DNA of 16,776 bases from Escherichia coli (GTDB lineage Bacteria; Pseudomonadota; Gammaproteobacteria; Enterobacterales; Enterobacteriaceae): NCBI RefSeq assembly GCF_003334765.1, contig NZ_QOWT01000053.1, one strand, 5' to 3'. The stretch's first letter is position 1, and every line of letters starts with the position of its first letter. The notes under the pieces are model-generated. The model did not search any database and was not told where the DNA came from. It worked only from the letters and a program-made list of their open reading frames with translations. The translations under genes were made by a program, and so were the position numbers. This document shows, piece after piece, positions 4,823 through 4,970 of this stretch.

Positions 4823-4970
4823 TACCGGAAACCGGGGAAAATTTTCATTTTCCCCTCAAAAGATCGTAGACACTGCCCCACTGGCTGATTATTATGCCGC
4901 GCCCTGAAAACACTACAGTTATTCAGGGAAATTATTTCACCATTCATTCGATGATGATTTTTGAGGAATT

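Follow-up and report, generated by a model that had tools for sequence, protein, structure and literature searches.

The window analyzed here is a stretch of 16,776 nucleotides of Escherichia coli DNA (contig NZ_QOWT01000053.1 of RefSeq assembly GCF_003334765.1) that carries the dnaK-talB region of the chromosome in reverse orientation. Window positions were converted to those of MG1655 by subtracting them from 15465, a relation that was checked against NC_000913.3. Three genes, yaaI, yaaW, and satP, follow each other on the + strand between dnaK and mog, which lie on the - strand (Table 1). The naming of the YaaW protein is inconsistent, as RefSeq/PGAP calls it "acidic protein MsyB" in most E. 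coli (Pfam PF13099 and PF03981) and the MG1655 record calls it "putative enzyme-specific chaperone YaaW"; the best 120 matches in a protein homology search were E. coli clusters only. The subject of this study is a short inverted repeat in the spacer between yaaW and satP, in which the NC_000913.3 annotation has no feature. No mention of this repeat was found in the yaaW and satP papers examined. The repeat is an unannotated but ordinary element, and a minor feature of the region.

Table 1. Features of the yaaI-yaaW-satP region, in window positions
Feature	Position	Strand	Remarks
dnaK	1386-3302	-	
Second copy of the G-run and A5T6 palindrome, GGGGGAGATGCAAAAATTTTTT	3452-3473	none	left junction of the yaaI-yaaW cassette
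yaaI	3679-4083	+	
yaaW	4109-4822	+	
yaaW stop codon TGA	4820-4822	+	
Inverted repeat GGGGAAAAT-TTTC-ATTTTCCCC	4834-4855		9-bp arms, 100% complementary, 4-nt loop
Left (5') arm GGGGAAAAT	4834-4842	+	distal end of the yaaI-yaaW cassette
Nested 10-bp palindrome GAAAATTTTC	4837-4846	none	overlaps the repeat; Escherichia-specific
Loop TTTC	4843-4846	+	varies among genera in length and sequence
Right (3') arm ATTTTCCCC	4847-4855	+	constant 6-nt distance to the invariant GATC before the satP -35
GATC and predicted satP -35, TAGACA	4862-4865 and 4867-4872	+	promoter scan
Predicted satP -10, TATTAT, then GC-rich discriminator GCCGCGCCC	4890-4904	+	promoter scan and conservation
satP	4971-5537	+	
mog	5572-6162	-	

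An earlier note on this DNA had described a perfect 9-bp inverted repeat 12 nt after the yaaW stop, and both the sequence and the position of the stop codon bear this out: a gap of 11 nt follows the stop codon and the stem starts at the twelfth nucleotide. Four G-C pairs form the base of the stem and five A-U pairs its upper part, which is therefore entirely A-U, and the predicted folding energy of the RNA is -10.6 kcal/mol for the + strand and -12.0 kcal/mol for the - strand. Measured against the stable, G-C-rich stem of a terminator, the repeat qualifies but is borderline because of its all-A-U upper half. The 8 nt beyond the stem read UCAAAAGA on the + strand, with one U in eight, and GGUUUCCG on the - strand. 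A terminator scan that looks for at least five T in eight omits the site, in agreement with the earlier statement that no U-tract follows on either strand and that the repeat is not a classic intrinsic terminator.

The window holds three loci with perfect inverted repeats of at least 9 bp and loops of 3-8 nt, where 200 dinucleotide shuffles lead one to expect 0.5. Besides the yaaW repeat, these are two terminator-like loci: published 3' ends place the end of the talB transcript at 6239-6266, and the locus at 15158-15191 was assigned solely from its flanking A and T runs. A single repeat of this size is thus only mildly improbable, and it is its conservation, described below, that lifts the yaaW repeat above chance. 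A search of Rfam with E values up to 10 over positions 4000-5700 returned no match that overlaps the repeat. The nested palindrome GAAAATTTTC, which is absent in Citrobacter, Kluyvera, and the other genera compared, is probably a by-product of the A-run/T-run core. Two further candidates were considered and rejected. A small open reading frame on the - strand (4813-4947, 44 aa) was dismissed, as loop indels of 1-4 nt among genera disrupt any frame. A sigma-32-like promoter on the CCCC run (CCCCTCAAA, 15 nt, CCCCACTG, + strand) was judged by eye to match in part, and this in E. coli alone, and was set aside because its spacing and sequence differ in Citrobacter and in genomes without the yaaI-yaaW pair.

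Downstream of the repeat, the arrangement TAGACA-17-TATTAT at 4867-4895 matches the sigma-70 hexamers at 10 of 12 positions and is the likely satP promoter. Transcription of satP would then start at about 4901-4903, which puts the repeat at about -68 to -47, with 11 nt between the stem and the -35 hexamer. The GATC, TAGACA, TATTAT, and GCCGCGCCC elements make up the best conserved noncoding block upstream of satP in Enterobacteriaceae. The GATC and the -35 motif are present in most loci of the family, with an identity of 0.96 among 25 variants, and the predicted promoter as a whole (4862-4904) is almost invariant, with the Dam site abutting the -35 element. A very GC-rich discriminator, such as the one in this predicted promoter, is typical of stringently controlled promoters.

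The distribution of the repeat was followed in 80 species-level loci, found by a scan for satP relatives, and 80 metagenome loci, found by a DNA-pattern scan; Salmonella is absent from the sampled genomes. In class A loci the order is dnaK< yaaI> yaaW> satP>, as in Escherichia, some Citrobacter, Kluyvera, Pseudocitrobacter, Superficieibacter, Pseudescherichia, and the Klebsiella oxytoca group. In class B (some Citrobacter) yaaI is kept and yaaW is deleted. In class C, which comprises most other genera, dnaK is directly divergent from satP at a distance of about 300 bp. Several further loci have undergone independent deletions that removed the yaaI-yaaW segment, hereafter the cassette, mostly or wholly.

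Within E. coli, a 44-nt segment with the repeat is present in 5,425 of 5,426 complete genomes, each time as a single copy, which is not the pattern of a repeat family such as REP/BIME, with its many copies and its consensus. Positions 4823-4866 are identical in 3,958 E. coli genomes; in the four polymorphic strains examined, the substitutions lie 5' of the stem, and one strain lacks, in addition, a single T of the right arm. The conservation in relatives that the earlier note had thought worth checking extends to four further genera: the class A and class B loci of Escherichia, Citrobacter, Kluyvera, Pseudocitrobacter, and Superficieibacter all have the hairpin, always placed so that 6 nt separate it from the invariant GATC downstream, and with folding energies of -10 to -19 kcal/mol. 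The sole exception among the cassette-bearing contigs of this set is a metagenome contig of unknown taxon (L152), the stem of which has a mismatch and a bulge and folds at -3.0 kcal/mol.

Klebsiella (oxytoca group) and Pseudescherichia have yaaI-yaaW and no comparable hairpin, and the hairpin is thus dispensable. The Klebsiella loci have an extended yaaW reading frame, and Pseudescherichia has a class C-type right side (ATTTCACCC) with no G-run. In a tree of YaaW proteins the hairpin-bearing lineages are paraphyletic and the hairpin-less Pseudescherichia is nested within them, which indicates that the hairpin is old, was long retained, and was lost at least once. As a separate observation, partial or complete deletion of the cassette has taken place several times, at differing breakpoints, in Citrobacter- and Kluyvera-like genomes (L003, L006, L007, L011, L016, L089, L090, L100, L122, L129, and L157). 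The hairpin is still intact in two cassette-deleted loci (L089 and L100), which could mean either a recent deletion or a role independent of yaaW; in three others (L006, L090, and L129) the left arm is lost and the stem has decayed.

The class C loci also give an indication of where the repeat came from. Between the dnaK P1 promoter and the satP -35 element they read ATCAAGGGGG-N6-AAAAAATTTTT-AATTTCACCC-N7-GATCATAGAC, in which ATCAAGGGGG, on the + strand, is taken to be the sigma-32 promoter P1 in view of the published sequence of that promoter. The right arm of the repeat is homologous to AATTTCACCC of these genomes without yaaI-yaaW, and a gap-free alignment of the E. coli AT core and right arm with the class C spacer (AAAAATTTTTAATTTCACCC) has 13 identical positions of 18 by hand count. 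The second copy of the G-run and A-run/T-run palindrome, beside dnaK P1, is kept in all cassette-bearing genomes; it adjoins the hexamer ATCAAG (3447-3452, + strand), presumably the -35 of P1. The yaaI-yaaW pair behaves as a cassette within the dnaK P1/satP spacer, spanning 3452-4855 and flanked by two copies of a G-run followed by AAAAATTTT (3452-3473 and 4834-4846). Comparison of these loci suggests that the cassette sits inside the AT-rich palindromic spacer of the divergent dnaK P1 and satP promoters, and that the right arm and the AT core descend from this old spacer, while the left arm would belong to the cassette end. Beyond what the earlier note contained, the repeat is thus placed 11 nt from the satP -35, appears to be half inherited from the ancestral dnaK/satP spacer, and is missing from some genera that have yaaW.

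Such an origin raises the question of whether the repeat is a functionless relic, a by-product that arose when the cassette entered an A-run/T-run palindrome with G and C runs on either side. The two flanking copies just described fit this explanation, an A-run next to a T-run is inherently self-complementary, the hairpin is dispensable in two genera with yaaW, and two published 3'-end maps list no RNA end at it. On the other hand, the arms are far more conserved than their flanks in a set of lineages with only about 70% identity among their YaaW proteins. Furthermore, every stem substitution in the cassette-bearing genomes, with the exception of L152, keeps a standard or a G.U pair, and an imperfect ancestral dyad has become a pair of perfectly complementary arms. 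A relic is regarded as quite unlikely.

The degree of conservation was measured as mean pairwise identity among 25 distinct variants: the left and right arms score 0.86 and 0.89, the 8 nt upstream of the repeat 0.36, and the 6-nt spacer 0.59. The loop is variable (TTTC, TTTT, AATCC, AGTTT, AATTC, TCAC, ATCACC, and others), so that the two arms are 4, 5, or 6 nt apart among genera (3-8 nt in minimum free energy folds). The substitutions in the stem include a compensatory change from G-C to U-A in Superficieibacter and in Citrobacter sp. R56, a series from G-C through G.U to A-U at the outermost pair in Citrobacter, and changes from A-U to G.U in Kluyvera and Pseudocitrobacter.

For the pairing statistics, the right arm was anchored on the invariant GATC and the partners were taken from the minimum free energy fold of each sequence, a procedure that fits the alignment to the structure and therefore inflates the values. 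With this limit, 90.8% of the cells are paired when read on the + strand and 88.3% on the - strand, and the covariation score is 0.205 compared with 0.109 in shuffled alignments, of which 0 of 500 attained the observed score. Compensatory pairing across relatives, the hallmark of a conserved structured RNA, is therefore present in this structure-fitted alignment, with double changes in 3 of the 10 pairs and few events. The + strand reading has 5 G.U pairs and 10 mismatches, and the - strand reading has 2 G.U pairs and 13 mismatches, as a G.U pair becomes A.C on the opposite strand; the G.U pairs favor the + strand slightly, and this is a weak preference. RNAalifold applied to an ungapped 48-nt MAFFT alignment gave a 6-pair consensus that was out of register because the loop lengths differ. 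Taken together, the conserved arms, the compensatory changes, and the variable spacing point to selection for pairing and not for a protein-binding sequence, and RNA would be the form on which selection acts.

These data bear on the earlier suggestion that the repeat is either an RNA stability hairpin or a protein-binding palindrome upstream of satP. The first half of this proposal fared better than the second: a hairpin is favored by the conserved arms, the compensatory and G.U changes, and the variable loop, although a role in RNA stability, as such, would go a step beyond what these alignments suggest, and a palindrome for a protein is disfavored by the shifts in spacing and by the restriction of GAAAATTTTC to Escherichia. 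A role as operator, through which a dimeric transcription factor would control satP, has some initial appeal, as the center of the perfect dyad is near -58, a location that class I activators use, and as regulation of satP, an acetate/succinate transporter, is plausible. However, the half-sites are 4, 5, or 6 nt apart depending on the genus, so that neither the spacing nor the sequence is fixed, both half-sites have changed together in Superficieibacter, and the literature that was found reports no binding site at this position. An operator is extremely unlikely. The repeat does resemble what we take to be the GGAAA..TTTCC box of IclR/AllR-type regulators, a candidate that was rejected given that the core palindrome is specific to Escherichia.

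A stronger competitor acts at the level of DNA: the AT-rich core and the C-run (about -47 to -68) might serve the satP promoter as an UP-like or curved element taken over from the dnaK P1/satP spacer, the hairpin being incidental. Indeed, the right arm stands at a constant 6 nt from the invariant GATC and the -35, and its homolog in class C genomes (AAAAATTTTTAATTTCACCC) lies in a region that separates divergent promoters and is presumably untranscribed. An imperfect dyad occurs in these cassette-free genomes as well, and the hairpin persists in some loci that have lost the cassette. Core and right arm thus share their derivation with the AT-rich, UP-like spacers of divergent promoters; in contrast to these, the E. 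coli region is no longer between divergent promoters and has gained a complementary left arm. This left arm, which is foreign to the ancestral spacer, equals the right arm in conservation and covaries with it, and the promoter-element explanation does not account for it. Moreover, the segment from -57 to -47 (TCATTTTCCCC) is a poor match to the UP consensus (with the predicted start site as reference), the proximal A-tract TCAAAAGAT, a partial match, is not conserved in relatives, and the promoter is kept in Klebsiella and Pseudescherichia, where the repeat is missing. We consider this explanation unlikely, though it deserves to be kept in mind.

As the repeat follows a stop codon, a weak intrinsic (Rho-independent) terminator of yaaW must be weighed too. 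With canonical intrinsic terminators the yaaW repeat shares a G-C-rich stem base directly after the stop codon, and in some Citrobacter loci a moderately U-rich tail follows the stem (UUAUUAGAU and UUUGUUAGAU). Yet the tail in E. coli (UCAAAAGA, one U in eight) is not a U-tract, A-U pairs alone make up the upper half of the stem, and the tail differs from genus to genus. The bidirectional terminator between satP and mog (5545-5570) illustrates the difference: it is predicted by the scan and has published ends in MG1655 at 9892 (-) and 9920-9922 (+), whereas the yaaW repeat is missed by the scan and has no mapped 3' end. Such a terminator is very unlikely.

The published maps themselves call for a more careful reading. 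Neither the Term-seq ends (PMC7815308 supplement) nor the TRS ends (PMC10687069 supplement) include any at or near the stem, but neither lists an end for yaaW anywhere; both do list ends for talB, mog, and satP in the neighborhood. The SMRT-Cappable-seq supplements have no yaaW or satP entries. The search for 3' ends that had been put forward as a check on the repeat has thus yielded none at the stem in these maps, a result of little weight, because no yaaW end of any kind is listed, perhaps due to weak expression of the gene.

A better precedent than the intrinsic terminators is the class of U-poor protective stem-loops that end Rho-dependent E. coli transcripts and have no upstream A-tract (Dar and Sorek 2018, PMC6061677). 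The yaaW repeat agrees with this class in being stable, located just 3' of an open reading frame, and devoid of a U-rich stretch after it or an A-tract before it; it is not a REP sequence, and the 50 nt downstream (4856-4905) have a mild excess of C over G (16 C, 10 G). It differs in that no steady-state 3' end is listed at the repeat in the two published maps, and in that a rut site would have to fit into a short interval, given that a promoter and a translated gene follow within about 115 nt. Read-through RNA would enter the translated satP, which complicates the assignment of a site of action for Rho. Intercistronic stabilizer hairpins and REP elements (e.g., malE-malF) offer another parallel, for a hairpin placed between genes of the same orientation could shield the mRNA of the first gene following cleavage or read-through; unlike them, the yaaW repeat is single-copy, has no REP consensus, and is much shorter.

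The reading that we prefer, with a probability of about 0.45, is that the repeat is a 3' stem-loop of the yaaI-yaaW transcript that has no U-tract and serves as a barrier to exonucleases or as a weak insulator. An RNA stem-loop on this transcript is the most economical choice because the repeat is part of the 3' untranslated region of yaaW and because the G.U pairs fit the + strand slightly better. The yaaI-yaaW transcription unit would thus carry at its 3' end a short RNA stem-loop of about -11 kcal/mol, which would not act as an efficient intrinsic terminator because it has no U-tract. In a manner known from many E. coli mRNAs, 3'-5' exonucleases would most likely shorten transcripts ended or cut further downstream until they reach the base of the stem, and the stem would thereby define and protect the 3' end of yaaW. 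With no more than 11 nt between it and the satP -35, the stem may in addition delay polymerases arriving from the cassette or stop them weakly, and so limit their interference with the satP promoter. In evolutionary terms, the two arms, one from the spacer and the other from the cassette end, would have been kept complementary after insertion of the cassette.

A bolder version of this reading holds that the stem-loop is a U-tract-independent insulator, exapted when the cassette landed in the palindromic spacer between dnaK P1 and satP, with one arm derived from the spacer and the other from the cassette, and with pairing selected in order to stop or pause cassette polymerases 11 nt before the satP -35. 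Independent control of satP would be preserved in that case, but we regard this version as decidedly unlikely. Of the 3' stem-loop in general it can be said that it would add one unannotated conserved element to the E. coli map and would settle where the little-studied yaaI-yaaW unit gives way to the satP promoter; very little else is at stake. It is an example of a functional-looking hairpin that seems to have been built half from an older promoter spacer after the insertion of a cassette, for which the repeated and varied deletions of the cassette amount to a natural experiment. It also advises caution in annotation, as a hairpin after a stop codon is not always a terminator.

Several other features of the region were noted along the way. 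Citrobacter loci have a second palindrome, GTGATGCTCGTCAC, directly 5' of the hairpin and overlapping the yaaW stop (L010:2849-2862, and also L015, L016, L003, L009, L122, and L157); by eye it resembles a CRP-type site, GTGA-N6-TCAC, and it is absent in E. coli. Within the yaaW coding region, positions 4321-4355 hold an imperfect 17-nt inverted repeat, 88% complementary and with arms 1 nt apart, in a stretch that is also antisense to mbiA/htgA. The Term-seq data (PMC7815308 supplement) include a strong 3' end inside the satP reading frame, about 100 nt past the start codon (window 5071, MG1655 10394, - strand; score 23469, class "internal").

The satP leader seems to open with a stem-loop of its own, CCCTGAA..TTCAGGG at 4902-4928, which begins in the GC-rich discriminator. 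No Rfam match was obtained for it, and RNAalifold on a MAFFT alignment was unsuccessful owing to the same problem of variable lengths. At the same position in loci L001-L079 the sequence of the stem varies by genus and the pairing is kept, e.g., CCCCGAAG..TTCGGGG, CCCCGTCAGG..TGACGCGGG, CCCCAGCATTGGGG, and CCCTTTCAGCC..TTTGAAAGGG. Among 75 distinct satP leaders, the first 44 nt have a median minimum free energy of -14.4 kcal/mol and a mean z of -1.6, and the structure may be a stabilizing hairpin at the 5' terminus or an attenuator.
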